In this document: positions 5,659-61,593 of the stretch, piece by piece
Position numbering within the stretch: position 1 is the stretch's first letter
How the letters are laid out: every line of letters starts with the position of its first letter
Source: Chloroflexota bacterium
GTDB taxonomy: Bacteria; Chloroflexota; UBA11872
Assembly (NCBI GenBank): GCA_965263175.1
Contig: OZ253587.1
Location: 136,105 to 200,104, forward strand
Reading direction: 5' to 3'
Length of the DNA stretch: 64,000 bases
Position numbers and translations under genes: made by a program
The notes under the pieces: model-generated
What the model saw: only the letters and a program-made list of their open reading frames with translations
The model's database searches: none
Told to the model about the DNA's origin: nothing

Positions 5659-5761
5659 TCGCGCCGCATCGAGGCGGTCCGCCAACCGTCACCAGCCCCG
5701 CAACGCCTATTCAGGCGTCCTTCGCCGCAACAGCCCCGAGTTACCCACGGAGCGTCCGCTG

Positions 5762-7311: not shown

Positions 7312-7434
7312 GAGACCTTTGCACAACGCCCTTCGTCCGCGAAGGTGCGGCCCGCTCTTGCTCCCTCTCCCTGTGGGAGAGGGTTGGGGTGAGGGTCTTC
7401 CGGGCAACAGTCCCCCGGATTACGCAAAGGTCTC
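7312..7434. mobile_element. MITE-like element, full copy, about 123 bp, with TIRs GAGACCTTTGC...GCAAAGGTCTC
   Basis: Terminal inverted repeats plus an internal perfect 9-bp hairpin, CCCTCTCCC-TGT-GGGAGAGGG. The same family recurs at least six more times in the window. Confidence 0.75.
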
Positions 7435-8828: not shown

Positions 8829-9746
8829 CTAGCCCCCGCCAAACTGCAGGATCGACCAACTCACGGCCACCCACGCAATCACTGACGCCAGGATTCCCGG
8901 GTCTCCCAGCAGGACGCGCTCGGGTTCCTCGCCCGATCCGTTGGCCTGCAGGAGATAGACATACCGCAGGATTCCGTACAGCACGATCGGGATGGTGATC
9001 ATCATCAGGTGGTTCTCCGGCAGGTTGGGCGCGGAAAACGTGTACAGGGCGTAGCTGAGCGGCGTGGCCGAGGCCGTAATGACGATGAGCGTACGCAGGA
9101 ATTCCGGCGTATAGCGGTCCAGAACCGGACGGGCCGCGGACGAACGGGCTTCCGCGCCAAGTTCAGCCCAGCGTTTGCCCACGGCCAGGAACAACGCCAG
9201 CAGGAACGTGCAGATATAGAGCCAGGGCGAGATCGGCACCTCGATCACCAGGGCGCCCGCCGCCGCGCGAATCACAAACCCCACCGCAATCGCCAGTAGA
9301 TCCAGGATCACCAGGTGCTTGAGCACCAGCGAATAGCCGATCTGCAGCGCCAGATACACCGCCAGCGCCGCCCCAAACGGCCAGGTCAGCGATGTGGCCA
9401 GCGCCAAGGCCGCGACGCTGAAGAGCGCTCCCACGCCAACGGCCATGCCAACTGGCACCAGCCCGGCCGCGATCGGTCGGTGCCGCTTGACCTCATGCTG
9501 GCGGTCGCGTGACGCATCAATCGCGTCGTTCAGCATGTACAGCCCGGCCGTGGCCAGCGTGAAGATGGCCACGGCGGCCACGGCGGCCAGCAGGCTGGCG
9601 CCGCTGTGGAACTCGCGCGAAAACAGTAGCGCGGCCAGCACCAGCAGGTTCTTCGGCCACTGCCGCGGCCGGCTGCTGACGGCAAGCCCCACCAGCCTGG
9701 CCCTCAGCCTGGGGGATGGCTCCTGCGGTCGCTGCGCGGGTGTCAT
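8829..9746 (-). CDS. UbiA family prenyltransferase (decaprenyl-phosphate phosphoribosyltransferase-like)
   Basis: NDAIDASRD (NDxxDxxxD) motif and KRHRPIAAG, with about 8 TM helices. The start may instead be at 9836. Confidence 0.7.
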   Translation of the reverse strand: MTPAQRPQEPSPRLRARLVGLAVSSRPRQWPKNLLVLAALLFSREFHSGASLLAAVAAVAIFTLATAGLYMLNDAIDASRDRQHEVKRHRPIAAGLVPVGMAVGVGALFSVAALALATSLTWPFGAALAVYLALQIGYSLVLKHLVILDLLAIAVGFVIRAAAGALVIEVPISPWLYICTFLLALFLAVGKRWAELGAEARSSAARPVLDRYTPEFLRTLIVITASATPLSYALYTFSAPNLPENHLMMITIPIVLYGILRYVYLLQANGSGEEPERVLLGDPGILASVIAWVAVSWSILQFGGG

Positions 9747-9762
9747 GGCGCGATCAGGCCGG

Positions 9763-10467
9763 TCAGTCGCCGTACCGGCGGTCCAGCACCGCGTTGGCGG
9801 CCCGAACCACCCCGGCAAAGGCGAGCAGCAGGCCAACCAGGGTGCCGGCCGCAGCCCACGCCTCGCCGGCCGCGGCCCACGTCAGCAGCGCAAAGACTCC
9901 CCAGGCCGACCCCACCAGGCCCAGGATGATCAGCGGGAAGATCACTCCAATCGCCATCACCGTGTAGCCCGCCGTCTGCCGCACCAGGCCGGCGTCCACC
10001 ACGCGAAACGCGCGCCGGCTCGTACGGTCCAGGTGATAGGCCGCCGTGAACCAGAACACGCCCAAGATCAGCGGCGCGCCGACCCAGGCCGCCGCAACCA
10101 GGCTCGTCGACCGGTCCACGCGCGGGTCGTCGGGCGCTGGAATCGGCGGCCAGGCCATGTCCAGCGCCAGCGCCGCCTGGACCGACTCCACAATCCCGCC
10201 GGACCATGGCACCGCCACCGAAAGCAGCCCCCAGGTCAGCGCCCCCATCAGCGCCACGCCCAGGATCGTCAGACCGGTCCCGCGCCAGGTGCCGTCCATG
10301 CGCCGCAGCTGGTCCTGAACCATGACCAGGGTCTCTCGCAGCGTCAGCGGCTGGTACGGATCCTCGGACGTCGGCGCCGCGCGCTCCGCGGCCGGCGGCG
10401 GCGAGTCCGCCGGCTCGAGACCGACGTCGTCCTCAGGCCGGCTTGCTGGCGTCACCCGCTTGATCAC
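9763..10467 (-). CDS. hypothetical membrane protein
   Basis: Hydrophobic segments, and codon bias consistent with the genome. No family recognised. The start is uncertain. Confidence 0.35.
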   Translation of the reverse strand: MIKRVTPASRPEDDVGLEPADSPPPAAERAAPTSEDPYQPLTLRETLVMVQDQLRRMDGTWRGTGLTILGVALMGALTWGLLSVAVPWSGGIVESVQAALALDMAWPPIPAPDDPRVDRSTSLVAAAWVGAPLILGVFWFTAAYHLDRTSRRAFRVVDAGLVRQTAGYTVMAIGVIFPLIILGLVGSAWGVFALLTWAAAGEAWAAAGTLVGLLLAFAGVVRAANAVLDRRYGD

Positions 10468-10776: not shown

Positions 10777-11442
10777 GTGAACCGCTCCCGGCGGACGGCC
10801 GGGCCACTCCTGAGCCCGCCTCGGAATCCCGACGCCTGGGTAAGTACCCACCGCGCCACCTACGAGCGCATGGCGGTGGACTACGCCCGCCGCATCGACG
10901 ACTACGCCGCCGCCGACGAAGCCGAACGCTTCACACGCCTGGCCGCGCCGTCGGACTGGAGCGGGCCGCGCATCCTCGACGCCGGCTGTGGCCCGGGCCG
11001 CGACGCCGCCCTGCTGCGGCTGGCCGGCGCCGAAGTCGTCGGCCTGGATCTGGCTCGGGCCATGCTGCAGGAAGCCCGGCGTCTCGACGAAAGCGCCCGG
11101 CTCTGCCAGGGCGACCTGCGTCGCCTGCCCTTCGCCGCGAACTCCTTCGACGCCGTCTGGTGCTTCGCCGCTCTGGGCCACCTGCCGCCCGCCGCCATCC
11201 CCCATGCGCTTAGCGAGTTCAGGCGCGTCCTCGATGGCGGCTGGCTCTACGTCGTCATCCGCCAAGGCTCCGGCGTCCGCGCCTCCTCCTGGCAGGGCTC
11301 GCTCCCCCGCTACTTCACCGACCTCACGCCCGAGACCCTCACCACCGCCCTCCACGCCGCCGGCTTCACCATCCACGAACAAAACACCTGGCCCGCCCCC
11401 AACCACCACCCCTGGCTCCACACCATCGCCCGGGGCTTCTGA
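10777..11442 (+). CDS. class I SAM-dependent methyltransferase (Methyltransf_11-like)
   Basis: ILDAGCGPGRDAALL (motif I), VVGLDLARAML, and FDAVWCFAALGHLP. Confidence 0.65.
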   Translation: MNRSRRTAGPLLSPPRNPDAWVSTHRATYERMAVDYARRIDDYAAADEAERFTRLAAPSDWSGPRILDAGCGPGRDAALLRLAGAEVVGLDLARAMLQEARRLDESARLCQGDLRRLPFAANSFDAVWCFAALGHLPPAAIPHALSEFRRVLDGGWLYVVIRQGSGVRASSWQGSLPRYFTDLTPETLTTALHAAGFTIHEQNTWPAPNHHPWLHTIARGF

Positions 11443-11447
11443 CCCCC

Positions 11448-12290
11448 TCAGTCGTTCAGCCAGGCCTCGTCCGGTTCCTCGCGCGGGCGGCCGCCGGCGG
11501 CGGTGTGGCGCTCGATGGCCGCAACAACCGCCCGCAGAAAGCCGTCCAACTCGCCCAGGTGCCCGCGCAACGCCTCGGCCACGGGAGCGCGGCCAATCGG
11601 ACCTGGAACGCGGTCCGACCCGGCGTCTCGAAACGTCACCGGCGCCTGAGCCACGCGTCGCCCGATGCCCGCAATATCCCCCAGCCAGATCCGTCGCTCC
11701 TGCAGCGCCGATCCCAGCGCGGGGTCCAGGAACATCAGGCGCCCCGTCAGTTCGCGGCCGCCGGGGTCCGGACGCACGCGCGACGCTAGCCGCAGGTCAA
11801 AGGCCTCGGCCAGCCAGCGTCCGGTTTGGGCCACGCTCTCGGCCACGTGACGCAGGGCCGCGCCGGCCAGCAGGTCGAACTCCGCCGTGGCCGGATCAGC
11901 CATCGCCGCGCCCGCCGCCGCGATGGCCGCCAGCCGGTAGTGCCCGAACACGCCCCAGGCGCAGTCCGACTCGGTCGTACCCGGCGCATCCGCGTACGCC
12001 TCCAGCAGCGGCCGGGCGAACGCCACGTCATGCGCAACGCCCGCGGGCAACGGCCGCCCCAGCGCCGCCAGGTCAGGCGGCGAGGCCGTCGGTCGACCGC
12101 CGAAAAGGTTCTCCACGAGGCTGCGAATCCACACCCATCGGTCGTCGGCAGAGAAGCCCTGGCGGTGGCGTCCGGCGAATCTGGCAGGCCGGTTCACTAC
12201 GATCTCTCGCCGCAATGTTTCACGTGAAACATCGCCGCCGTCACCCGGCCTGGGCCACAGGTCGGGGATACACTGAACGGCGTTTCGCAC
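11448..12290 (-). CDS. hypothetical protein
   Basis: Long ORF with genome-typical GC3 and no recognised motif. The start may be downstream of the parS site. Confidence 0.3.
   Translation of the reverse strand: MRNAVQCIPDLWPRPGDGGDVSRETLRREIVVNRPARFAGRHRQGFSADDRWVWIRSLVENLFGGRPTASPPDLAALGRPLPAGVAHDVAFARPLLEAYADAPGTTESDCAWGVFGHYRLAAIAAAGAAMADPATAEFDLLAGAALRHVAESVAQTGRWLAEAFDLRLASRVRPDPGGRELTGRLMFLDPALGSALQERRIWLGDIAGIGRRVAQAPVTFRDAGSDRVPGPIGRAPVAEALRGHLGELDGFLRAVVAAIERHTAAGGRPREEPDEAWLND
12216..12231. promoter_or_regulatory. parS site, TGTTTCACGTGAAACA (perfect match to consensus)
   Basis: Exact 16-bp palindrome identical to the ParB/Spo0J parS consensus tGTTNCACGTGAAACa, about 80 bp upstream of proS. 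Confidence 0.8.
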
Positions 12291-12310
12291 TCTGCCAACG
12301 GCCCTACTCC

Positions 12311-14074
12311 ATGCAGCGCATGTCCCGGTTATTCGCCCGCACGCTTCGCGACGATCCCGTCGAGGCGACCATCGTTTCCCATCGCCTCCTGTTGCGGGCT
12401 GGCTACATCCGGCCGTTGGGCGCGGGCATCTACAGCATGTTGCCGCTGGGCTGGCGGGTGCAGCGCCGGGTCGAGCAGATCGTGCGCGAGGAAATGGACC
12501 GCATTGGCTGCCAGGAACTGCTGATGCCCGTCGTCCACCCCTCCGATCTGTGGGAGCGCACGGGCCGCTTTCACTCGGTCGGCTCGGAGATGGCGCGGCT
12601 CAAGGACCGCTGGGGCCGCGACATGGTGCTGGCCATGACCCACGAGGAGGTCGCCACCGATCTCGGCAAGTGGGTCGCCTCGTCCTACCGCCAGCTGCCG
12701 CTTTGCATTTACCACTTCCAAACCAAGTTCCGCGACGAACCGCGCCCTCGCGGCGGTCTGCTGCGCGTCCGCGAGTTCACCATGAAGGACGCCTACAGCT
12801 TCAACACCGACCTTGAAAGCCAGGAGGCCACCTACCAGGACTTCATGACGGCCTACCTGCGCGCCTTCCGCCGCTGCGGCATCGAGCCGGCCGTCGTCGA
12901 ATCGGACGCCGGCGCAATGCAGGGATCCGGCGCCCACGAATTCCACTGCCTCACCGAGGCCGGCGAAGACACCCTGGTCGTCAGCGCCTCCGGCCGCTAC
13001 GCCGCCAACATTGAAATCGCAAAGGCCCAGAAGCCCGTCTTCGACCACGGCGAGCCGCAGCCTGTCGAAAAGGTCGCCACGCCCGGCCAGGAGACCATTG
13101 ACGACGTGGCCGCCTACCTGGGCGTGGAAACCCACCAGACCCTCAAGGCCGTCTTCTACTGGACCGGCGACGCCCTGGCCTTCGTGGCCATCCGCGGCGA
13201 CCTGCAGGTCAACGAAGCCAAGCTGCGCAGCCTGTTGCAAGCGCCCGACCTGCGGCTGGCCGCCGACCAGGAGCTCAAGGCCGCCGGCCTGGTCGCCGGC
13301 TACGCCTCACCCGTCGGACTGTCCAACGTCACCGTGGTGGTCGACGACTCCGTCGAGTCGACAACCAACCTGGTGGCCGGCGCCAACCAGCCTGGCTATC
13401 ACCTGATCAACGTCAACTTTCCGCGCGACTTTGAGGCCGATCTGCGCGGCGACATCGCCCAGGTGCGCGCCGGCGACCGCAGCATCGAGGACGACGAGCC
13501 GCTGGAGCTGATGACCGGCATTGAGATCGGCAACACCTTCAAGCTCGGTACCTTTTACAGCGACAAGTTGGACGCCCAATACCTGGCCGCCGACGGCCGA
13601 CGGCACCCCTTCATCATGGGCTCCTACGGCATCGGCATCGGCCGCCTGGCCGCCTCGGTGGTGGAGCGCTATCACGACGCCCACGGAATCATCTGGCCCG
13701 TCAGCGTGGCCCCCTACGACGTCCACATCGTGCAGCTCGGCGCCGGCGACGTGGCAGCGGACGCCGAGCGCCTGGCCGAGGAGCTCGAAGCCGCCGGCCT
13801 GGCCGTGCTGCTGGACGACCGCGGCGACAGCGCCGGAGTCAAATTCAACGACGCCGACCTGATCGGCCTGCCCTTCCGCCTCACCGTCAGCCGCCGCACC
13901 CTGGCTGCGTCGGCCGTCGAGTTCAAGCCCCGCGCGTCAACCGAACGCCAGTCCATCCCACGCGACCAGATCGTCAGCGCCGTCCTCGACGCCCGCGCCG
14001 CCGCGATCGCGGCCTTGACCCCCAACGCTCCCGTCACCATGCCCCCACTCGAAGCCGCCGGAGCAGTTCGCTAG
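12311..14074 (+). CDS. proS: proline--tRNA ligase (bacterial type with INS editing domain)
   Basis: MSRLFARTLRDDPVEATIVSHRLLLRAGYIRPLGAGIYSMLPLGWRV...LLMPVVHPSDLWERTGR aligns to the E. coli ProS N-terminus. About 587 aa. The ATG could be at 12311 or 12320. Confidence 0.85.
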   Translation: MQRMSRLFARTLRDDPVEATIVSHRLLLRAGYIRPLGAGIYSMLPLGWRVQRRVEQIVREEMDRIGCQELLMPVVHPSDLWERTGRFHSVGSEMARLKDRWGRDMVLAMTHEEVATDLGKWVASSYRQLPLCIYHFQTKFRDEPRPRGGLLRVREFTMKDAYSFNTDLESQEATYQDFMTAYLRAFRRCGIEPAVVESDAGAMQGSGAHEFHCLTEAGEDTLVVSASGRYAANIEIAKAQKPVFDHGEPQPVEKVATPGQETIDDVAAYLGVETHQTLKAVFYWTGDALAFVAIRGDLQVNEAKLRSLLQAPDLRLAADQELKAAGLVAGYASPVGLSNVTVVVDDSVESTTNLVAGANQPGYHLINVNFPRDFEADLRGDIAQVRAGDRSIEDDEPLELMTGIEIGNTFKLGTFYSDKLDAQYLAADGRRHPFIMGSYGIGIGRLAASVVERYHDAHGIIWPVSVAPYDVHIVQLGAGDVAADAERLAEELEAAGLAVLLDDRGDSAGVKFNDADLIGLPFRLTVSRRTLAASAVEFKPRASTERQSIPRDQIVSAVLDARAAAIAALTPNAPVTMPPLEAAGAVR

Positions 14075-14212
14075 GGCGTTTGCCCCAACACTCCGGACCG
14101 GCCGCCACTGAACGCTGACAGCCCCCGGTCTGGCGCAGGGCCTCGAGATCTTGCGCGGCGCCTAGAATGCCCCGGCTCCGCCGCCTGACGCGGTGGCCGC
14201 CGGTGCCTGGGC

Positions 14213-15316
14213 ATGCAGTGGATTAGAGATCCGCAACGCGACTCGCGCGAGGACCTTCGCGCGGCCCAGCAGGCCTTGGTGTATGCCGGCTATCCGCATT
14301 CCGACGCGGTGACCGAGGTCACCACCCACCTCAATCGCGTCCGCGCCGCCCTGGCCGCCCCCCGCCAGGCCCTCGTGGCCGGATTCCTGACCGGCGCGTC
14401 CATGGCCATCGGCGTCTTTCTGGTGCTGTCCCTGGCGCTCGGCGGGCTTGGCCTGGTGATGCGCGCTGTCGGCGATTCCGGGACTCCCGGCAACATCGGC
14501 CCGGCCGCATCCGACGCGGCGCCAGCGGAGGCTGGCCCTGGTTCGCCGCTCGGCGTCCTGCCGGCGGTGGTGGTGGCGGCGCCGGTGCTGGGACTTGCCG
14601 GAGCTGGCATGGCCCGCGTCACGCGTAACCGCTGGCGACGGGCCGGCGTCCTCCGCACGTTTACCGATCTGCGCCCGCGCCGCCGCTACCTGCTGGAAGC
14701 CGCCGCCGTCTGGCTGGGAGTGGCCGGAGTGATCGTGCTGATCGTCTGGGCATTGGCCGGACCGCGGCTGGGCGCCAACGTGGCGCAGGGGCTGGCCTTT
14801 TTCGGAATTCCCCTCGGTGCGGCCGCCTTCGCAGCCTGGTTTTCCAAGCTGTATGCCTTGATCTTGCCGCGAATAAGTCCCGTGGACGCTGCTGCTGCTG
14901 CGCGCCCAATCATTGAGCGCGACGCGGCACGGCAGGTTGTGTCGGAGCGGGGATACTACGGCCGCGCCGCCTATGACCGCACCGCCTACGATCGCAGCCG
15001 CTGGGCCGACGAGGTACTCGCCTCCAAGTCCCAGGGGGACTTTGCCGAGGCACGGCGTAGCCAAGCTACGGCCCGCGACATCGCCCAGCGGTCGGGGGCA
15101 TATTCATACGGCCAGACACCGTGGCGTCGTATCGCGCACTACGGCCTGATCACGGGCGGGGCCACGATTGCCGTCACCTTCCTCATCTATCGGATGGCTT
15201 GGCTCATGTCGCCGCAGGCGCCCGGCCCTGGGGTGGGAGTCCTCGCCCTGTTCGTCGGCCTCATCCTCGGCGTCGGCCTCACCTGGGTCTACGCCCGCTA
15301 CTTCGAGGGCCTGTGA
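14213..15316 (+). CDS. polytopic membrane protein, founding member of a local paralogous family (unknown function)
   Basis: N-terminus MQWIRDPQRDSREDLRAAQQAL, VTRNRWRRAGVL, ISPVDAAAAARPIIER, C-terminus GLTWVYARYFEGL. Paralogues lie at 16454..17290, 15348..15824 and the remnant at 18961..19068. Confidence 0.55.
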   Translation: MQWIRDPQRDSREDLRAAQQALVYAGYPHSDAVTEVTTHLNRVRAALAAPRQALVAGFLTGASMAIGVFLVLSLALGGLGLVMRAVGDSGTPGNIGPAASDAAPAEAGPGSPLGVLPAVVVAAPVLGLAGAGMARVTRNRWRRAGVLRTFTDLRPRRRYLLEAAAVWLGVAGVIVLIVWALAGPRLGANVAQGLAFFGIPLGAAAFAAWFSKLYALILPRISPVDAAAAARPIIERDAARQVVSERGYYGRAAYDRTAYDRSRWADEVLASKSQGDFAEARRSQATARDIAQRSGAYSYGQTPWRRIAHYGLITGGATIAVTFLIYRMAWLMSPQAPGPGVGVLALFVGLILGVGLTWVYARYFEGL

Positions 15317-15347
15317 ACGCCCACCTCGCACCGAAAGCACGGTCATC

Positions 15348-15824
15348 GTGACCCCCAGGCGCCCAACGGACGGTGATCGCGCGCGCCGCCCCTTTTCTGA
15401 TCCGCAGGACCCCTTCAACGAGCGACCACGTCGAGCATCGCGCAGCCAGCGGCGCCTCCAAGAATCCGCCCGCCGTGAGCAGGCGACACGTCATGTCGGT
15501 CGCCTATCCGCCCGGCGCGATGCAACGCTTGGATGGCGACTGGGGGTCTACGGGCTGATCACGGTCGGAACCACGCTCGTCGTCTGGCGCCTCACGCACT
15601 GGATCGTCTGGGCTTACGATCCCAGCGGCGCCGTGAGCACTCGCGTCGCGGGCCTCCCGAGGCCCGGGTTCTATGCCGGTCGTAGCGCCGCCGAAATCGC
15701 CGCCTCCGGCCTGGCGAATCAACCGGAGCCGGCGGCCTGGATCGACCCGGTTGGCCTAATCGTTGGTCTCGCCGTCGGCCTCGCCATCACCTGGGTCTAC
15801 ACCCGCTACTTCCAAAACCTGTAA
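15348..15824 (+). CDS. truncated paralogue (C-terminal TM domain only) of the 14213 family; possibly a pseudogene
   Basis: Frame-0 homology: TLGWRLGVYGLITVG...GLAITWVYTRYFQNL against the C-terminus of the 14213 product. There is no ATG. An in-frame GTG at 15348 is the best start candidate. Confidence 0.35.
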   Translation: MTPRRPTDGDRARRPFSDPQDPFNERPRRASRSQRRLQESARREQATRHVGRLSARRDATLGWRLGVYGLITVGTTLVVWRLTHWIVWAYDPSGAVSTRVAGLPRPGFYAGRSAAEIAASGLANQPEPAAWIDPVGLIVGLAVGLAITWVYTRYFQNL

Positions 15825-15916
15825 GCCCCCACGCGCGCCGTAGTCTGTGTCACCGTGGCGGCGGTCGATACAGACGCTGCGACTGTTCTCATACCGCCTA
15901 TTGAAAGAGCTAACCC

Positions 15917-16315
15917 TTGCAACTGGACTTCGCCTTCATCTGCGACTACGCCGACAGCACATCCAAGGTCGTGGCCATCGGCATTGGGTTCGATCAGATC
16001 CACGCCCCAAACCTCCCCGCCCGCCATCCGCGCCTCTGCGTCGTCGCTCGTTTCCGAGCCCACAAGACCGAGGTCGGTCGCAAGCAGGCAAAGGTCGTCA
16101 TTATGGACGCCGATGGCGCCGAAACCGCGGCAGTCCAGGGGAACCTTGAGTTCACGGAACTGATCAACCGTCTCGAAACCACAGCCACCCTGGTCGTCAA
16201 CTTCGACAACTTGAACTTCGAGCGCTACGGCCCCTACTCGGCGCACGTCCTACTCGACGGCAACGAAATGCACCGCATGGCCTTCGAAGTCTCCGAACCT
16301 CCGGCCGCAGGCTAG
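15917..16315 (+). CDS. small hypothetical cytoplasmic protein (132 aa)
   Basis: TTG start after an AAAGAG-like RBS. Beta-rich sequence (VVAIGIGF..., LVVNFDNLNFERYGPYSAHVLLDG). No family recognised. Confidence 0.4.
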   Translation: MQLDFAFICDYADSTSKVVAIGIGFDQIHAPNLPARHPRLCVVARFRAHKTEVGRKQAKVVIMDADGAETAAVQGNLEFTELINRLETTATLVVNFDNLNFERYGPYSAHVLLDGNEMHRMAFEVSEPPAAG

Positions 16316-16453
16316 ACCTTCGTCGCCGACGCAACTGACTTGATTCGCTTCGGGCATTCGGTCACACACGTTCACTGAGCAGCCACGGCATGCTGGGCGG
16401 CAGACCGGACAGCAAAGCGATCGTGGCGAGACCCAAAGGGCGGCGGTGCGATA

Positions 16454-17290
16454 ATGCCTTGGTTCTCCGACCCCCAACGCGACTCGCGCGACGACATTCG
16501 CGCCGCCCAGCAGGCGCTGAAATATGCCGGCGACCCGCGTTCCCAGGCCGAGGTCGATTACGCGACGCATCTGTACCGCGTGCGGGCGGCCTTGGCCACA
16601 CCCCGCCACGTCCTCGGGGCAGGCTTCCTGGTCAGCGCCGCCATGGCCGTGGCGCTGCTCCTGGCGCTGGGCGTCGGTTCGTTCCTGATAGTTGCGGCGT
16701 TCGGTTCAGCGGTCCCAGCTTGGGGGCCCGCCGGCCCCTTCGTGGTGCGTGGGCCGGACGATTCAGGGTCCTCGGGTGGGTCGCTGCTCGACATCCTTCT
16801 GCCTCTGGTGACGACCGTTGCAGTGCTGGGCGTGGCCGGGGCCGGGATTGCGCTGGTCACGCGCAACCGCTGGCGGCGCGCCGGCGTGCTGGACACGTAC
16901 ATCGACCTCGCCCCTCGGCAGTCCTACCTGCTGCAGACCGTGGCGGTCTGGGTGGGGGTTGGCGCTCTCATGGTCCTGGCTGTCCGGTGGCAGGGCGACG
17001 AGGAGATGGTCACCGGCGCCGTAGTGATGCTGACCTTTGCTGGGATTCCGCTGCTGGCTTTGCTGTTCTCCGCCATGTTTCCCAGCCTCTACAAGTGGCT
17101 CCTGCCCCGCTTCAGCCCGGTCGACGCCGCCGCTCACGCGCGGCCCATCATCGAGCGTGAGGCGGCACTGCGGATCAATGCCGACCGCGATCTCTACGGA
17201 CGCAGCGTCCACCGTCACAGCATCGACACCCGAAACCGGTGGGCGGACGAAGTCCTGGCTCGATCTGACGCCGCCCGACGCCGACGATAA
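16454..17290 (+). CDS. membrane protein, paralogue of the 14213..15316 product
   Basis: MPWFSDPQRDSRDDIRAAQQALKYAG, VTRNRWRRAGVL, FSPVDAAAHARPIIEREAAL, and RWADEVLARS are shared with the paralogue. Confidence 0.55.
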   Translation: MPWFSDPQRDSRDDIRAAQQALKYAGDPRSQAEVDYATHLYRVRAALATPRHVLGAGFLVSAAMAVALLLALGVGSFLIVAAFGSAVPAWGPAGPFVVRGPDDSGSSGGSLLDILLPLVTTVAVLGVAGAGIALVTRNRWRRAGVLDTYIDLAPRQSYLLQTVAVWVGVGALMVLAVRWQGDEEMVTGAVVMLTFAGIPLLALLFSAMFPSLYKWLLPRFSPVDAAAHARPIIEREAALRINADRDLYGRSVHRHSIDTRNRWADEVLARSDAARRRR

Positions 17291-17375
17291 ACCGAACGCC
17301 TTCCCCTGAAAACCGAGTCGTACCTACATGGCGCCCCGCAGCCTCAGCGGGCATGCCGTTTCGCGCTCCTTACCG

Positions 17376-17438
17376 GAGACCTTTGCCCAACGCCCCGCGT
17401 CCTCGACGGTGCGGCCCGCTCTTGCTCCCTCTCCCTGT
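17376..17438. mobile_element. MITE fragment (left half), interrupted by the IS5-family insertion
   Basis: GAGACCTTTGCCCAACGCC...CTCTTGCTCCCTCTCCCTGTG, followed directly by the IS terminal repeat. Confidence 0.65.
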
Positions 17439-18628
17439 GGAGACCTTTGCTTAACTGCGGCATGCACGGCCGAGGGGGTGAGATCGGGGCCAAACGGCGG
17501 CCAGCGGCGGCCACAACGGCCGGGCGCCGGGGGATCGTCGGGCGGTCCCGTGGGGTTCCCCCGCCGCGACGGCGCACGGATCCCACGTTAGCCACCGGCC
17601 AGCGCCTGCAAGCGGCTCGCGCGCCGCAGGTTGTAGGCCATACATTTGAACCACAGTTCCACCGCGTTCCGCGCCAGCCCCAGGTAGCGCACGGTCCGGT
17701 ACCCGTAGCTCCGCTTCAACGTCCCAAAGACGTGCTCCACCGGTGCCCGCACCTTCCCGATCAGCGCATTGCGCCGCTGCTGCCAGGAGGGCAGCCCGCG
17801 CTGGTGCTTGTGCGAGCGGTGCATGATCCGGTCGTTAATCCCCTGCGCCCGCAACCGCGCCCGCCGGGCCTTGGACTCGTAGGCCTTGTCCGCGTAGACC
17901 GCCCGCTCGTCGCCGCTGATCAACGTGTCCGCCACCTCGCTTTCGTTCACGTGCGCCGGCGTCAGCACGGCTCGCCGGATCAGCCCCGACGCCGCATCGA
18001 CCCCCAGGTGCGCCTTGTAGCCGAAGGGGGCGCGCCCACCTTTGCGCGTCCAACTCGCCTCCGGGTCGGTGGCACTGCCCGCCCCCGGCCCCTCGTCCAT
18101 CGACGGCCGCCGCGCCTGCGCCGCCACCAGCGTCGCGTCCAGGAGCGTGCCCGCCTTGACCAGCCAGCCGGCGGCGTCCACTTGCCGGGTCACCTCGGCG
18201 AACAAGCACTCGCCCAAGCCCCGGTCCGCCAGCGCGGTCCGAAAGCGGCTGATCGTCGAGTGGTCGGGCACCGGGTCCTGCAGGCCCAGCCCGACGAAGC
18301 GCCGGAACGACAGCCGGTCCCAGAGCGCCGCCTCGATCTCGGGGTCGGAGGCCTGGTACCACTGCTGCAACAGCAACACCTTCACCATCAGCAGCGGCGG
18401 ATAGCTGGGCCGCCCCTCGGGGGCGGCGTAGATGTCGCTGACCACGACCGCGAGCCGCTCCCAGTCCACGACCTCGTGGAGCTGGTCCAGCCGCGCGTTA
18501 CGGCCCACCGGCGGCGGCAACCACGCGTCCACGAACGAGGCGTCCCCTACCTGTCGATGCATGGGCCATCTCCACCAAAGTCCCGTCGTCCCCATGGTGG
18601 CCGCATAGCCCAGTTATGCAAAGGTCTC
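17439..18628. mobile_element. IS5-family insertion sequence (about 1.19 kb), copy 1
   Basis: Imperfect TIRs GGAGACCTTTGCTTAACTGCGGCATGC / GGAGACCTTTGCATAACTGGGCTATGC (the right TIR read as reverse complement). Flanked by the 6-bp direct repeat CCTGTG. Encodes one DDE transposase. Confidence 0.7.
17588..18595 (-). CDS. IS5 family DDE transposase
   Basis: N-terminus YPPLLMVKVLLLQQWYQASDPEIEAALWDRLSFRRFVGL (InsH-N/DUF772-like). C-terminus VEHVFGTLKRSYGYRTVRYLGLARN. 335 aa. Confidence 0.8.
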   Translation of the reverse strand: MGTTGLWWRWPMHRQVGDASFVDAWLPPPVGRNARLDQLHEVVDWERLAVVVSDIYAAPEGRPSYPPLLMVKVLLLQQWYQASDPEIEAALWDRLSFRRFVGLGLQDPVPDHSTISRFRTALADRGLGECLFAEVTRQVDAAGWLVKAGTLLDATLVAAQARRPSMDEGPGAGSATDPEASWTRKGGRAPFGYKAHLGVDAASGLIRRAVLTPAHVNESEVADTLISGDERAVYADKAYESKARRARLRAQGINDRIMHRSHKHQRGLPSWQQRRNALIGKVRAPVEHVFGTLKRSYGYRTVRYLGLARNAVELWFKCMAYNLRRASRLQALAGG

Positions 18629-18857
18629 CCTGTGGGAGAGCAACTGTGTGGCACGTCAAACGCCAATGGACCCTGCCGCTCTTTCTCCTTCTCCCTTGAG
18701 GGAGAAGGCTGGGATGAGGGTGGCTGCTGCCTCCAGCAACCACGCCAAATCGGCAGCAACCCGCCGCCCCTTCGCCGCCTCTTGCTCCCGCTCCCTGTGG
18801 GAGAGGGTTGGGGTGAGGGTCTTCCGGGCAACCCACACGGGGTTACGCAAAGGTCTC
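18629..18857. repeat. tandem MITE-core variants (a divergent core followed by a right-half MITE ending in GCAAAGGTCTC)
   Basis: CGCTCTTTCTCCTTCTCCCTTGAGGGAGAAGGCTGGGATGAGGG parallels the canonical core CGCTCTTGCTCCCTCTCCCTGTGGGAGAGGGTTGGGGTGAGGG. The canonical right end lies at 18776-18857. Confidence 0.55.
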
Positions 18858-18960
18858 TACAGGCGGCACGCCAATCAGCGGCTGGATTCTCACCCGCCCG
18901 GCTGTCGGCGTCGCGTTCAATCGCACTGGCGCGATAGGGCGCGCAGCTCCACCGAACCTG

Positions 18961-19068
18961 GCGCCACGGGCTGGATGCGCGGGATCGGACTTCGCAGGCT
19001 TAGCATTGGGCTGGATACTTGGCGTCGGTCTAACCTGGCTATACACCCACTACCTGGAGGGCCCGTGA
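18961..19068 (+). pseudogene. 3' remnant of a fourth paralogue of the 14213 membrane-protein family
   Basis: The frame-1 translation ...GLALGWILGVGLTWLYTHYLEGP* matches the conserved C-terminus ...GLILGVGLTWVYARYFEGL. The remnant lies just beyond the IS and MITE cluster. Confidence 0.5.
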
Positions 19069-20522
19069 GCACCAAGCCCTCGCCCCTGAACCGCCGCCAA
19101 GCCCTCGCGGCCGGCGCGGCCTCCCTGGGCGCTCTCGCCCTGGCCGCCTGCGGCGAGTCGCCAACCGAACGCGCCGCCGGTTCGCTGCCGCAAGGCCTCC
19201 AGGCGGAGTTGGCACGCAACCTGGAACGCGCCCGCGCCGAGGCCCGCACCGTCACCGAGGCCGCGCCGCGGGCCGCCGTCAATTTGCCCGCGCCGGGCGC
19301 AGGGCATCCGGTCACCGTGGCCATGTACCCCTCCAACCGGGTCGGCGGCAGCCTGTTCGGCCAGTTCGTCAACGGTCTGGCCGCGGCTCGCGAGCGCGCC
19401 GAGGAGCGCTACGCCTACACCGAGGCGCCCCTGGACTACGGGCGCAACGCCTCCTCCTTCAGCATCAGCACCTCCCTGGACGCCCTGGTGAACGTCAACC
19501 CGGACCTGGTCATCTTTTTCCGGGCCGACCAGGCCGACCTGCTGGCCAACGACCGACTGGCGCCGCTGGACGACTTCCTCGTGTCGGACCCGGACTTCAA
19601 CTCCGCCGACTTCTGGCCAGGCCTGCTGGAGACCGGCCGGCACGAAGGCGCGCAGTTCGGCCTACCGGTGGCTGTCTCGCCGCATGTGCTGTTGTTCAAC
19701 CGCTCGCTGGCGACCGAGCTACAGGTCGAACCGCCCGCCCCCGATCCGCTGGCCTTCGACGCCGAGGTCTTCCTGGATACCGTGCGCCGGCTGCACATGG
19801 AGCCGCCGCCCTCCGGCGGGTTGGGCAGCGTGGGCTACATATCGCGGTTCACGCCGGAACCGAATGCCGATGGCGACTACTCGGCTTCGCCATCGCCATT
19901 CGAACTGCTGCAGTCGGCTGTCGGAGACATTCGGGGACCCGGCAACGACTTCGCACCCCTCACCTCGCCGCCAGCCATAGCCGTCGCCGAGTTCCTGCGC
20001 GCCTGGGTGCACGACCATCGCTTGGCCATCACCGATGGCCGCACCACCCGCTCATATCAACGTACGGGCCAGTTCGGCTTCACGGGCACCATCCTGGCGT
20101 TTCTCCCGCCCACATGGCTTATCAGTGGCGGGCTGGACGTCTACCCCATGCCCAACATGGGCACCGGCCGCAACCCGGCCTTCGTCCACGCCATGATGGG
20201 CGTGCTGGCCAGCGCCAAGAACCCGGAACTCGCCTACGACGCCCTGCGCCACCTGGCGGCGGGCCTGCGCTCGAGTTCGATTCTGCCCGCAACCCGGATC
20301 TCAGCCGAAGGCGTGGCCGCGCGCGTCCCGGACCTGCCCCCCCAAGGCGCCAACCTAGTCGAGCAGCTGATGCCCAACGCCGTCTACTCCACCCTCAGCC
20401 GCCGCCAGGCCGGCCTCATCACCAACGGCATCGTCGGCGACATCGTCTTCGGCGACCAACACCCCCAAGAAGGCATGCAAGCCATCGCCAACCGCCTCCG
20501 CGCGGAGAACACTGACGCGTAG
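19066..20522 (+). CDS. extracellular solute-binding protein (ABC transporter substrate-binding, Tat/lipoprotein signal)
   Basis: GTG start. VSTKPSPLNRRQALAAGAASLGALALAACGE has a twin-arginine motif and a lipobox (LAAC). About 485 aa, with a periplasmic binding protein-like composition. Confidence 0.5.
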
Positions 20523-28253: not shown

Positions 28254-28375
28254 GAGACCTTTGCACAACGCCCTTCGTCCGCGAAGGTGCGGCCGCTCTT
28301 GCTCCCTCTCCTCGGGGAGAGGGTTGGGGTGAGGGGTCTTCCGGGCAACAGTCCCTCGGGTTACGCAAAGGTCTC
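28254..28375. mobile_element. MITE-like element, full copy
   Basis: GAGACCTTTGCACAACGCCC...GGGTTACGCAAAGGTCTC. Same family as 7312-7434. Confidence 0.75.
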
Positions 28376-41099: not shown

Positions 41100-42291
41100 G
41101 AGACCTTTGCAAAACCCTGGCGTGAGGTGGATCGTGGAGACCATCGTTCCCGCCGCCGAGAGTCGTGGCCATGCACCGTTCCACCCATTCGCCGGAACTG
41201 ATCGACGCCTGGCTGCCGCCGCGGGTGGGCCGCAACGCCCGGCTGGAGCGGCTGACGCAGCTCATCGACTGGGCGCCGCTGGAGGCGCTGGTGGCGGACC
41301 TGCACGCCGCGCCGGTCGGGCGGCCGAGTTATCCGCCGCTGCTGATGGTCAAGGTGCTGCTGCTCCAGCAGTGGTATCAGGCCTCGGACCCGGCGATGGA
41401 AGAGGCGTTGTGGGAGCGGCTGTCGTTCCGGCGCTTCGTGGGGTTGGGGCTGCAGGACGACGCGCCCGATCACTCGACGATCAGCCGCTTCCGCACGCGG
41501 CTGACGGCGGCGGGCGTGGCCGAGCCGCTGTTCGCGGCGGTGGAGCAGCAACTGGCCGCGCGCGGGCTGCTGGTCATGCAGGGCACGCTGGTGGACGCGA
41601 CGTTGGTGGACGCGCAGGTGCGCCGCCCGCAAGGGGGCGCCACCGGCGCGGGCAGCCCCCGGGACCCGGACGCGGCCTGGGCCCGGCGGGGCCGGCAGGC
41701 GCGCTTTGGCTACAAGCTGCACCTGGGGGTGGACGCCGAGTCGGAACTGGTCCGGCGCGCGGTGCTGACCCCGGCGAACGTGAACGAGACCCAGGTGGCG
41801 GACGAGCTGATCGCGGGGGACGAAGGGGCGGTGTACGGGGATGCGGCCTATGGCACGCACGCGCGCAGCGCCCGGCTGCGGGCGCGGGGGATCGCGGATC
41901 GGCTGATGCGACGGCCCACCAAACATCAGCCCCGGCTGGGCCCGGCGGCGCGCCGCCGCCACGCCCGGATCGAACAGGTGCGACGGCCGGTGGAGCACGT
42001 GTTTGGGACGTTGAAGCGCTCGTACGGCTACCAGCGGGTGCGCTACCGGGGCCTGGCCCGGAACACGACCGAGATGTGGTTCAAGCTGCTGGCCTACAAC
42101 CTGCGCCGCGCGGACCGCTTGCTGGCCGGGGCCCCGACCTCGCCCTAGGCGCGCTGCGCCCTCAACCAGGCGCGCAGGCCTGCGGGCAGGCCCCGGCGAG
42201 CGGCGACCCAGGCTGCCCCACCCCGCGCCACCCTCTCGCGGGTCGGGCGTCGCCCCTCGGCGCTGCGCAGGGCGCATTATTCAAAGGTCTC
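41100..42291. mobile_element. IS5-family insertion sequence, copy 2 (divergent from copy 1)
   Basis: TIRs GAGACCTTTGCAAAACCC... / ...TTCAAAGGTCTC. Flanked by the 6-bp direct repeat TCGTCA. About 1.19 kb. Confidence 0.65.
41165..42148 (+). CDS. IS5 family DDE transposase
   Basis: YPPLLMVKVLLLQQWYQASDPAMEEALWERLSFRRFVGL and VEHVFGTLKRSYGYQRVRYRGLARN. 327 aa. About 75% identical to the copy-1 transposase. Confidence 0.8.
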   Translation: MAMHRSTHSPELIDAWLPPRVGRNARLERLTQLIDWAPLEALVADLHAAPVGRPSYPPLLMVKVLLLQQWYQASDPAMEEALWERLSFRRFVGLGLQDDAPDHSTISRFRTRLTAAGVAEPLFAAVEQQLAARGLLVMQGTLVDATLVDAQVRRPQGGATGAGSPRDPDAAWARRGRQARFGYKLHLGVDAESELVRRAVLTPANVNETQVADELIAGDEGAVYGDAAYGTHARSARLRARGIADRLMRRPTKHQPRLGPAARRRHARIEQVRRPVEHVFGTLKRSYGYQRVRYRGLARNTTEMWFKLLAYNLRRADRLLAGAPTSP

Positions 42292-61484: not shown

Positions 61485-61593
61485 GAGACCTTTGCGTAAC
61501 CCGGGGGCGGTTGCCCGGAAGACCCTCACCCACAGGGAGAGGGAGCAAGAGCCGCCGCACCTTCGAGGACGCGGGGCGATTTGCAAAGGTCTC
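61485..61593. mobile_element. MITE-like element (shorter variant, 109 bp, opposite orientation)
   Basis: GAGACCTTTGCGTAACCCGGGGG...GCAAAGGTCTC. The paralogous locus at about 63725 lacks it (empty site). Confidence 0.75.

Follow-up and report, generated by a model that had tools for sequence, protein, structure and literature searches.

The DNA analysed here, called the window, is a stretch of 64,000 nucleotides from a Chloroflexota bacterium (contig OZ253587.1, positions 136,105 to 200,104). It contains, at 14213..19068, a tandem array of membrane-protein genes between proS, the gene of prolyl-tRNA synthetase (ProRS), and P484, which encodes a predicted lipoprotein. The membrane proteins of the array are helical and belong to a single orphan family from a narrow Chloroflexota clade. 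The family is unannotated and clade-restricted, and it has a modular architecture and a fixed genomic address. Its members are built of two modules, a core of four transmembrane (TM) helices and a C-terminal module of two (C-module), which are fused in long forms and split in short forms and stand-alone C-modules. The anatomy of the array and its history, in which one long-form gene was probably reduced to a remnant by recombination between paralogues, are proposed with high confidence; the whole explanation, in which anatomy and history are blended with the functional model given below, is reasonably probable. In what follows, A, B and C denote the genes at 14213..15316, 15348..15824 and 16454..17290, related loci are designated L0xx and related proteins P0xxx.

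An orphan family built of two modules

A and C encode homologous proteins (BLASTP, 49% identity, E 1e-73), which have in common an N-terminal motif, VTRNRWRRAGVL and SPVDAAA.ARPIIER. The original prediction, made from the window alone, had recognised this kinship and had described a tandem family of polytopic membrane proteins resembling nothing familiar, both of which hold; the C-terminal motif GL.LTWVY.RYF, which it had assigned to both proteins, is present only in A, B and the remnant, and is absent from C, which ends in ...AARRRR*. The match of B to A is limited to A residues 270-367 (E 8e-11). A family profile, built from an alignment of the paralogues (alignment A2), is covered at positions 1-371 by A, 1-274 by C, 271-370 by B and 312-370 by the remnant. 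The family signature comprises DPQRDSR..AAQQAL.YAGYP in the N-terminal domain (N-domain), a G.AGAG..VTRNRWRR loop, LPR.SP.DAAA.ARPIIE and RWADEVL, to which the long forms add G..LG.GLTW.Y.RY.E.

The first module, the 4-TM core, includes the conserved cytoplasmic N-domain, an Arg-rich loop and a domain after TM4; the second is the 2-TM C-module. They are fused in the long forms, namely class A (367-374 aa), class 3 (371-382 aa) and a 391-aa class, and split into short forms of 281-293 aa ending in RRRR* and stand-alone C-modules such as B. At least 120 homologues were collected, every one from Chloroflexota metagenome-assembled genomes or metagenomes, and their lengths fall into three classes (~367, 371-382 and 281-293 aa). 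Isolate names may point to sponge metagenomes as the habitat. Members with 22-33% identity keep this architecture. Among 1.84 billion cluster representatives, searched exhaustively with a profile, there were 54 matches only, all of them from the same family, and no distant family; a search of 185,579 species genomes found only 11 loci, all labelled Chloroflexota. No match above noise was obtained for A, B or C in Pfam, NCBIfam, PADLOC or PHROGs (PADLOC gave noise-level E values of 0.01-0.04 for B and the DUF6941 protein described below, and no match at all for A, C and P484). Likewise, a profile search of PDB sequences with the family gave no match, and no PDB fold resembled the family above noise.

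Hydropathy and the positive-inside rule predict six TM helices for the long forms, with both termini inside. The AlphaFold2 model of A is all-helical, with a predicted local distance difference test score (pLDDT) of 65.9, a predicted template-modelling score (pTM) of 0.51 and a disordered loop at residues 88-113. Conservation is highest in the cytoplasmic parts, that is, the N-domain, the VTRNRWRR loop and the post-TM4 domain, and the outer loops range in length from 13 to 41 residues, loop 1 (13-41) and loop 5 (13-37) both being poorly conserved. The ratio of nonsynonymous to synonymous substitution rates (dN/dS), calculated region by region for 15 A orthologues with the Nei-Gojobori method, ranges from 0.04 to 0.66; it is highest in the TM5-loop5-TM6 segment and nowhere exceeds 1. 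With a maximum of 0.66, positive selection on A was rejected, and the diversifying selection first proposed for the family is not supported.

Regarding the N-domain, its ALV.AGYP..EA stretch resembles the AL..LGY...EA signature of the three-helix UBA-like/RuvA_C domains, from which it differs in being attached to a polytopic membrane protein. One of ten N-termini, that of the distant P0123, matched RuvA_C (25.6 bits, cutoff 24; E 1.8e-5; 20 residues); A and eight others gave no match. The likeness is treated as a lead.

Genes A, B and C and the interleaved DUF6941 gene

Sixteen arrays from closely related genomes were mapped, and A and B are present and adjacent in all of them. In the window, the array has a GC content of ~64-74%. 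Gene A (14213..15316, + strand) is an intact class-A long form of 367 aa with six predicted TM helices and cytoplasmic N and C termini, which starts 139 bp after proS with no further paralogue between. Its orthologues are intact in 14 of 15 related arrays, the copy in L016 being split over two reading frames. The dN/dS of A is 0.25-0.50, compared with 0.13-0.17 for ProRS.

Gene B (15348..15824, + strand) encodes a stand-alone C-module of 158 aa, composed of an Arg-rich cytoplasmic N-terminal part, TM5, a long outer loop and TM6. Its start is a GTG, 32 bp past the stop of A. The original prediction had correctly seen here a C-terminal TM domain without an ATG, and had taken it for a truncated copy. 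B adjoins A in 16 of 16 arrays, directly downstream, its reading frame is free of internal stops in the four orthologues checked, each with a GTG or TTG start at the aligned position, and its dN/dS (0.31-0.54) is comparable to that of A; because of this, B is to be regarded as a conserved gene and not as a pseudogene. Further stand-alone C-modules in the representative library are P0149, P0155, P0157 and P0160.

Gene C (16454..17290, + strand) encodes a short form of 278 aa with TM1-4 and the cytoplasmic domain, and ends at a TAA stop. In a neighbour-joining tree of 46 family members it falls inside the clade of 281-aa short forms, as sister to L005_10215_281. All short-class proteins end in RRRR* at one aligned position, which is homologous to the RRRQ-L of class-3 genes. 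From this common end and from its place in the 281-aa clade, C is judged to be not truncated but a complete and intact member of the conserved short class. Over nucleotides 61-660, C and the 281-aa gene of L005 are 98-100% identical, and nucleotides 661-837 of C are nearer to the 290/293 type, which makes its 3' tail a mosaic. The near-identity extends over ~600 nt (window 16514-17113, L005 10275-10874), with the flanking genes at ~88%, and the synonymous divergence (dS) between C and the L005 gene is 0.07, against ~0.3 for the flanking genes of the same two genomes. This suggests a recent exchange between strains, or conversion of this single paralogue.

Between B and C lies a 132-aa open reading frame (ORF) with a TTG start (15917..16315, + strand). 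It had been singled out as a beta-rich interleaved gene, and it matches Pfam DUF6941 (PF22091; 101.6 bits, cutoff 27; E 5.2e-29; model positions 2-124 of 125), with an immunoglobulin-like beta sandwich and no signal peptide or TM segment noted. The gene accompanies the family in 11 of the 16 arrays, each time between B and the next paralogue, and a literature search found no publication on DUF6941. At L004 9674-10069, the source record has a 167-aa ORF on the minus strand, where tblastn finds a DUF6941 gene on the + strand, 83% identical; the minus-strand ORF is a probable mis-annotation.

Genomic position of the array

The arrays share one plan. From proS, it runs through 0-2 extra genes or paralogues to A, B and, where present, the DUF6941 gene, followed by 0-2 short forms, 0-2 class-3 long forms, in four arrays (L004, L008, L013 and L015) a 77-80-aa C-module ORF between class 3 and P484, and finally P484 itself. 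L010 and L011 have no class-3 gene. A comparison of copy number shows 2-5 full-core copies per genome, plus stand-alone C-modules, and the related genomes include some with A proteins just 70-75% identical to that of the window. The constant upstream flank, proS, occupies 12311..14074 (+ strand), with its ATG at 12311; its orthologues upstream of the array carry the Pfam domains tRNA-synt_2b, tRNA_edit and HGTP_anticodon. A tblastn search found proS, with 89-94% identity, in the 13 related arrays with sequence covering the upstream flank, and as a partial match in L015. P484 lies downstream of 16 of 16 arrays, at 77-94% identity. A scan of promoters and terminators gave no signal above shuffled expectation.

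An extra divergent paralogue of 375-391 aa lies upstream of A in L005 (6719-7894), L006 (5365-6540), L011 (29-1153) and L015 (1799-2866); in L005, L006 and L015 it stands between proS and A, the L015 copy being interrupted, and in L011 the contig does not extend to proS. L001 and L004 have a methyltransferase gene on the opposite strand at that position. In L006, the closest relative, a gene for a 268-aa leucine-rich repeat (LRR) protein with a eukaryote-like LRR pattern (12025-12831) and a 73-aa ORF lie between the short form and class 3. The mechanical proS ORF of the window extends 441 codons upstream of the ATG at 12311; this stretch (10988-12310) is rich in Pro, Arg and Ala, overlaps ORFs on the minus strand and probably does not code for protein in the proS frame.

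Origin of the class-3 remnant

Downstream of C, the remains of a class-3 gene flank a miniature inverted-repeat transposable element (MITE) and an insertion sequence (IS). The left piece (17291..17373, + strand) corresponds to codons ~276-303 of a 371-aa protein and follows in frame straight after the TAA of C; the right piece (18861..19068, + strand) contains the rest of TM5, the outer loop and TM6, and ends in ...GVGLTWLYTHYLEGP*. A fourth copy had been proposed to survive only as its last 35 codons, at 18961..19068. These do carry the C-terminal motif, and the remnant as a whole extends to ~96 codons, counting both sides of the MITE and IS. A tblastn search with P0057, a 371-aa paralogue from a related genome, aligned residues 1-303 with 16454..17377, through the TAA, and residues 293-371 with 18829..19059. 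With 17374..18860 removed, a continuous frame of 1128 nt with one internal stop is obtained, and the joined remnant (96 residues) matches P0057 residues 276-371 end to end (49% identity, E 1e-25). The right piece has no usable start, as no ORF of at least 40 aa beginning with ATG, GTG or TTG ends at 19068, and its stop overlaps the start of P484 (GTGA). The remnant is dead.

The comparison with L005 defines what is missing. The window is colinear with it over 14153..17263 (L005 7941..11024, 88.7% identity) and again over 18956..20514 (L005 13252..14810, 92.8% identity), and the ~2.2 kb of L005 at 11025..13251, which hold a 290-aa gene together with the end of the 281-aa gene and the greater part of a 373-aa gene, have no counterpart in the window. 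In a DNA alignment (alignment A3), the likeness to the tails of short genes runs up to the TAA, and from the next base onward the sequence matches class-3 genes of L005 and L006 in their middle part, and not the regions downstream of short genes. At the switch point lies GCCGAAC, which is common to short-type and class-3 genes, and class 3 is the best match in sliding identity past the stop of C. The junction is thus at the stop codon of C and precedes the MITE end by ~85 bp, which means that the deletion was not caused by the IS and MITE. A deletion mediated by the IS was rejected, since the junction coincides with the stop codon and not with an end of the IS or MITE.

The simplest reading is that the class-3 copy lost its 5' two-thirds through recombination and gene conversion between tandem paralogues. 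On this reading, the last third of a class-3 gene was brought directly behind the stop codon of the short gene C; the MITE inserted later into the remnant, and an IS5-family element then into the MITE, leaving A, B, the DUF6941 gene and C intact beside one dead remnant. The copy described as destroyed by IS insertion therefore owes its loss to its paralogues, the MITE and IS splitting what remained. Recombination and gene conversion among tandem paralogues are the way in which the array changes, and in this it is like other tandem multigene families subject to unequal crossing-over and gene conversion: it has same-strand paralogues, copy-number differences, genes of mosaic make-up and a hybrid junction where two paralogues meet at homologous positions. 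It differs from them in having no Pfam model, and in that the truncated-looking short form and C-module are conserved genes and not products of decay.

Two other histories were weighed. The first, along the lines of the original proposal, holds that the family was recently amplified in place and then decayed under diversifying selection, with B and C as truncated copies and 18961..19068 as one that the IS destroyed. In its favour, copy number differs between genomes, the one dead copy does carry the MITE and IS, the extracytoplasmic loops vary in length and sequence, and the dN/dS of the family (0.25-0.6) is above that of ProRS. However, B and the short class are kept even in genomes with the more divergent A proteins, with the checked ORFs intact and dN/dS below 1; the position of the array is fixed in 16 genomes, no region of A reaches a dN/dS of 1, and the deletion junction lies away from the IS and MITE boundaries. 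This history is largely refuted and very unlikely, and the array is old and syntenic and not a recent local amplification. The second, that C and the remnant are a single class-3 long gene inactivated in place by a nonsense TAA at 17288 and by the MITE and IS, with no deletion, would account for the continuous 375-codon frame with a single internal stop and for the passage of tblastn matches through that stop with 371-aa and 367-aa paralogues, but it is highly improbable given that nucleotides 61-660 of C are only 35-85% identical to class 3, that C sits in the short clade with its stop at the class-typical RRRR* position, and that, compared with L005, a 290-aa gene is missing together with the 5' two-thirds of the class-3 gene.

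The nested MITE and IS5-family element

The recombination junction is followed by a composite MITE (17376..18857, strand not assigned) of 291 bp in two parts of 63 and 228 bp, with the terminal inverted repeat GAGACCTTTGC, which lies in the TM5 codons of the remnant and was delimited from the inverted repeats I2, I4 and I5. Nested in its hairpin CTCTCCCTGTGGGAGAG is an IS5-family element of 1191 bp (17439..18629, - strand), bounded by the 27-nt inverted repeat I1 (85% complementary) and by the target duplication CCTGTG on both sides. Its transposase ORF (17588..18595, - strand, 335 aa) matches Pfam DDE_Tnp_1 (PF01609; E 2.3e-30) and DUF772, and the IS5-family model NF033581 of NCBIfam (299.5 bits, cutoff 140; E 2e-89), so that the IS5 and MITE cluster recognised at the outset is indeed one. 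The end sequence GAGACCTTTGC is common to the MITE and the IS, and the same ends are found on MITEs of 109-123 bp at 7312-7434, 28254-28375 and 61485-61593; a second copy of the IS is at 41100-42291. Exact 6-bp target duplications border the MITEs at 28254 and 61485 and both IS copies (TATTGT and TGGGGA for the two MITEs, TCGTCA and CCTGTG for the two IS copies), and the MITE at 7312 has none. The MITE in the remnant is flanked by TTACCG and TACAGG, an imperfect duplication. The 3-bp TAC was considered as its true target duplication and rejected, as the duplications at two other MITEs and at both IS copies are exact and 6 bp long, and the 6-bp flanks of this MITE are not identical.

The pair follows the pattern of IS5-family elements with cognate MITEs in its DDE transposase, in the terminal inverted repeats common to IS and MITEs and in the target-site duplications; different here are only the 6-bp length of the duplications and the nested composite arrangement. 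The MITE family is abundant in the window, with the core hairpin CTCCCTGTGGGAGAGGGTTGGGGTGAGGG, and the segment 22000-24914, which is bounded by MITE ends without a duplication, may be a composite element.

P484 and a possible function of the family

P484 (19065..20522, + strand), the constant downstream flank, encodes a 485-aa predicted lipoprotein with a twin-arginine translocation (Tat) signal (NRRQAL...LALAAC), the RR motif and lipobox having been read from the translation. A phmmer search against PDB returned several sugar-binding proteins, the best being 4r9f MBP1 (E 8e-5 over 85 residues); the score against Pfam SBP_bac_1 is 12.3 bits, below the cutoff of 26, and one orthologue has a precomputed PF13416 match. 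P484 thus weakly resembles family-1 solute-binding proteins (SBPs). The overlap of the P484 start with an upstream stop was read in two places only, in the window, where its GTG overlaps the stop of the remnant, and in the gene calls of L005, where it overlaps the class-3 stop; in at least six arrays, no more than a few bases lie between the end of the class-3 match and the match to P484. In the more distant L018, a 76-aa 2-TM C-module (9594-9824) stands alone between proS and P484. P484 is ~55% identical in L018 and in L019, another distant locus, and the array may have grown out of an ancestral C-module adjoining P484. Look-alikes of the C-terminal ~60 residues of P484 lie 300-1100 bp downstream of the full gene in L005 (15107-15336), L001 (15337-15486) and L006 (16903-17104), and look like partial duplications.

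We tentatively propose that the family proteins form a modular hetero-oligomeric membrane complex. The idea is suggested because the split forms are complementary, with four TM helices in the short form and two in the C-module, whose N-terminal part overlaps the same cytoplasmic domain, and likewise because conservation lies on the cytoplasmic side and a C-module adjoins P484. In such a complex, the 4-TM core would pair, in cis or in trans, with a C-module, the working surface would be the conserved cytoplasmic face, the variable outer loops would be tolerated linkers and the C-module would connect the complex to P484. The stricter form of this model, in which short forms and C-modules (B and the ORFs of 76-80 aa) are stably kept split halves of the 6-TM form that reassemble in trans, together with P484 and perhaps the DUF6941 protein, is distinctly unlikely.

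Several observations weigh against the explanation as a whole. The model of A is only of moderate quality (pLDDT 66), none of the libraries searched (Pfam, NCBIfam, PADLOC, PHROGs, PDB sequences and PDB folds) gave a match bearing on function, and the numbers of short forms and stand-alone C-modules are not one-to-one across genomes. In L019 (region 5677-5761), P484 comes directly after proS with no family member, and the distant P0139 is a singleton in an unrelated genomic context with no adjacent SBP gene, so the link to P484 is not obligatory. On the side of history, the target duplication around the MITE in the remnant is imperfect, and a small rearrangement at the site is possible.

Among other functions, a role as the membrane partner of P484, a transducer or a permease-like protein in substrate uptake or sensing, is unlikely. 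Its favourable points are the presence of P484 after every array, with the overlaps just described, the C-module ORF between class 3 and P484 in four arrays, L018 with nothing but a C-module and P484, and the likeness of P484 to sugar-binding proteins. The resemblance to type I importer permeases of the ATP-binding cassette (ABC) class (BPD_transp_1), which work with family-1 SBPs, includes ~6 TM helices, a conserved cytoplasmic TM4-TM5 segment and an adjacent gene for an SBP-like lipoprotein. However, BPD_transp_1 did not match A or C even at E 10, no EAA-loop motif of ABC permeases was seen by eye in the family, no ABC permease fold gave a structural match above noise, and the called genes of the related loci L001-L006 include no ABC ATPase or permease domain. 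L019, P0139 and the two arrays without class 3 count against the partnership as well, and synteny among close relatives is weak evidence for it.

Alternatively, the array might be a locus of surface variation or of phage-host interaction, in which shuffling of paralogues diversifies exposed loops. The variable lengths and poor conservation of loops 1 and 5, the mosaicism and gene conversion between paralogues, and the insertion of mobile elements and of the LRR-protein gene into arrays would fit. It is nonetheless very improbable, as the dN/dS of the loops is 0.29-0.65 and not above 1, no PADLOC or PHROGs match was found, the loops are short, of low complexity and predicted disordered, and conservation is strongest on the cytoplasmic side.

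Implications for the family and its hosts

B and C are, for purposes of annotation, to be treated as genes, and the sole pseudogene of the array is the remnant, a recombinant one and not an IS-truncated copy. The case calls for caution, since a copy that seems truncated when a single genome is considered can be a conserved product of gene fission. The genome dynamics involved, recombination of paralogues and insertion of a MITE and an IS, are ordinary, with no sign of a new mechanism. The family itself is a tractable target for work on these uncultured Chloroflexota. If its split halves do reassemble in trans, a handful of tandem genes would give rise to combinatorial membrane complexes, an undescribed modular membrane receptor or transport system.

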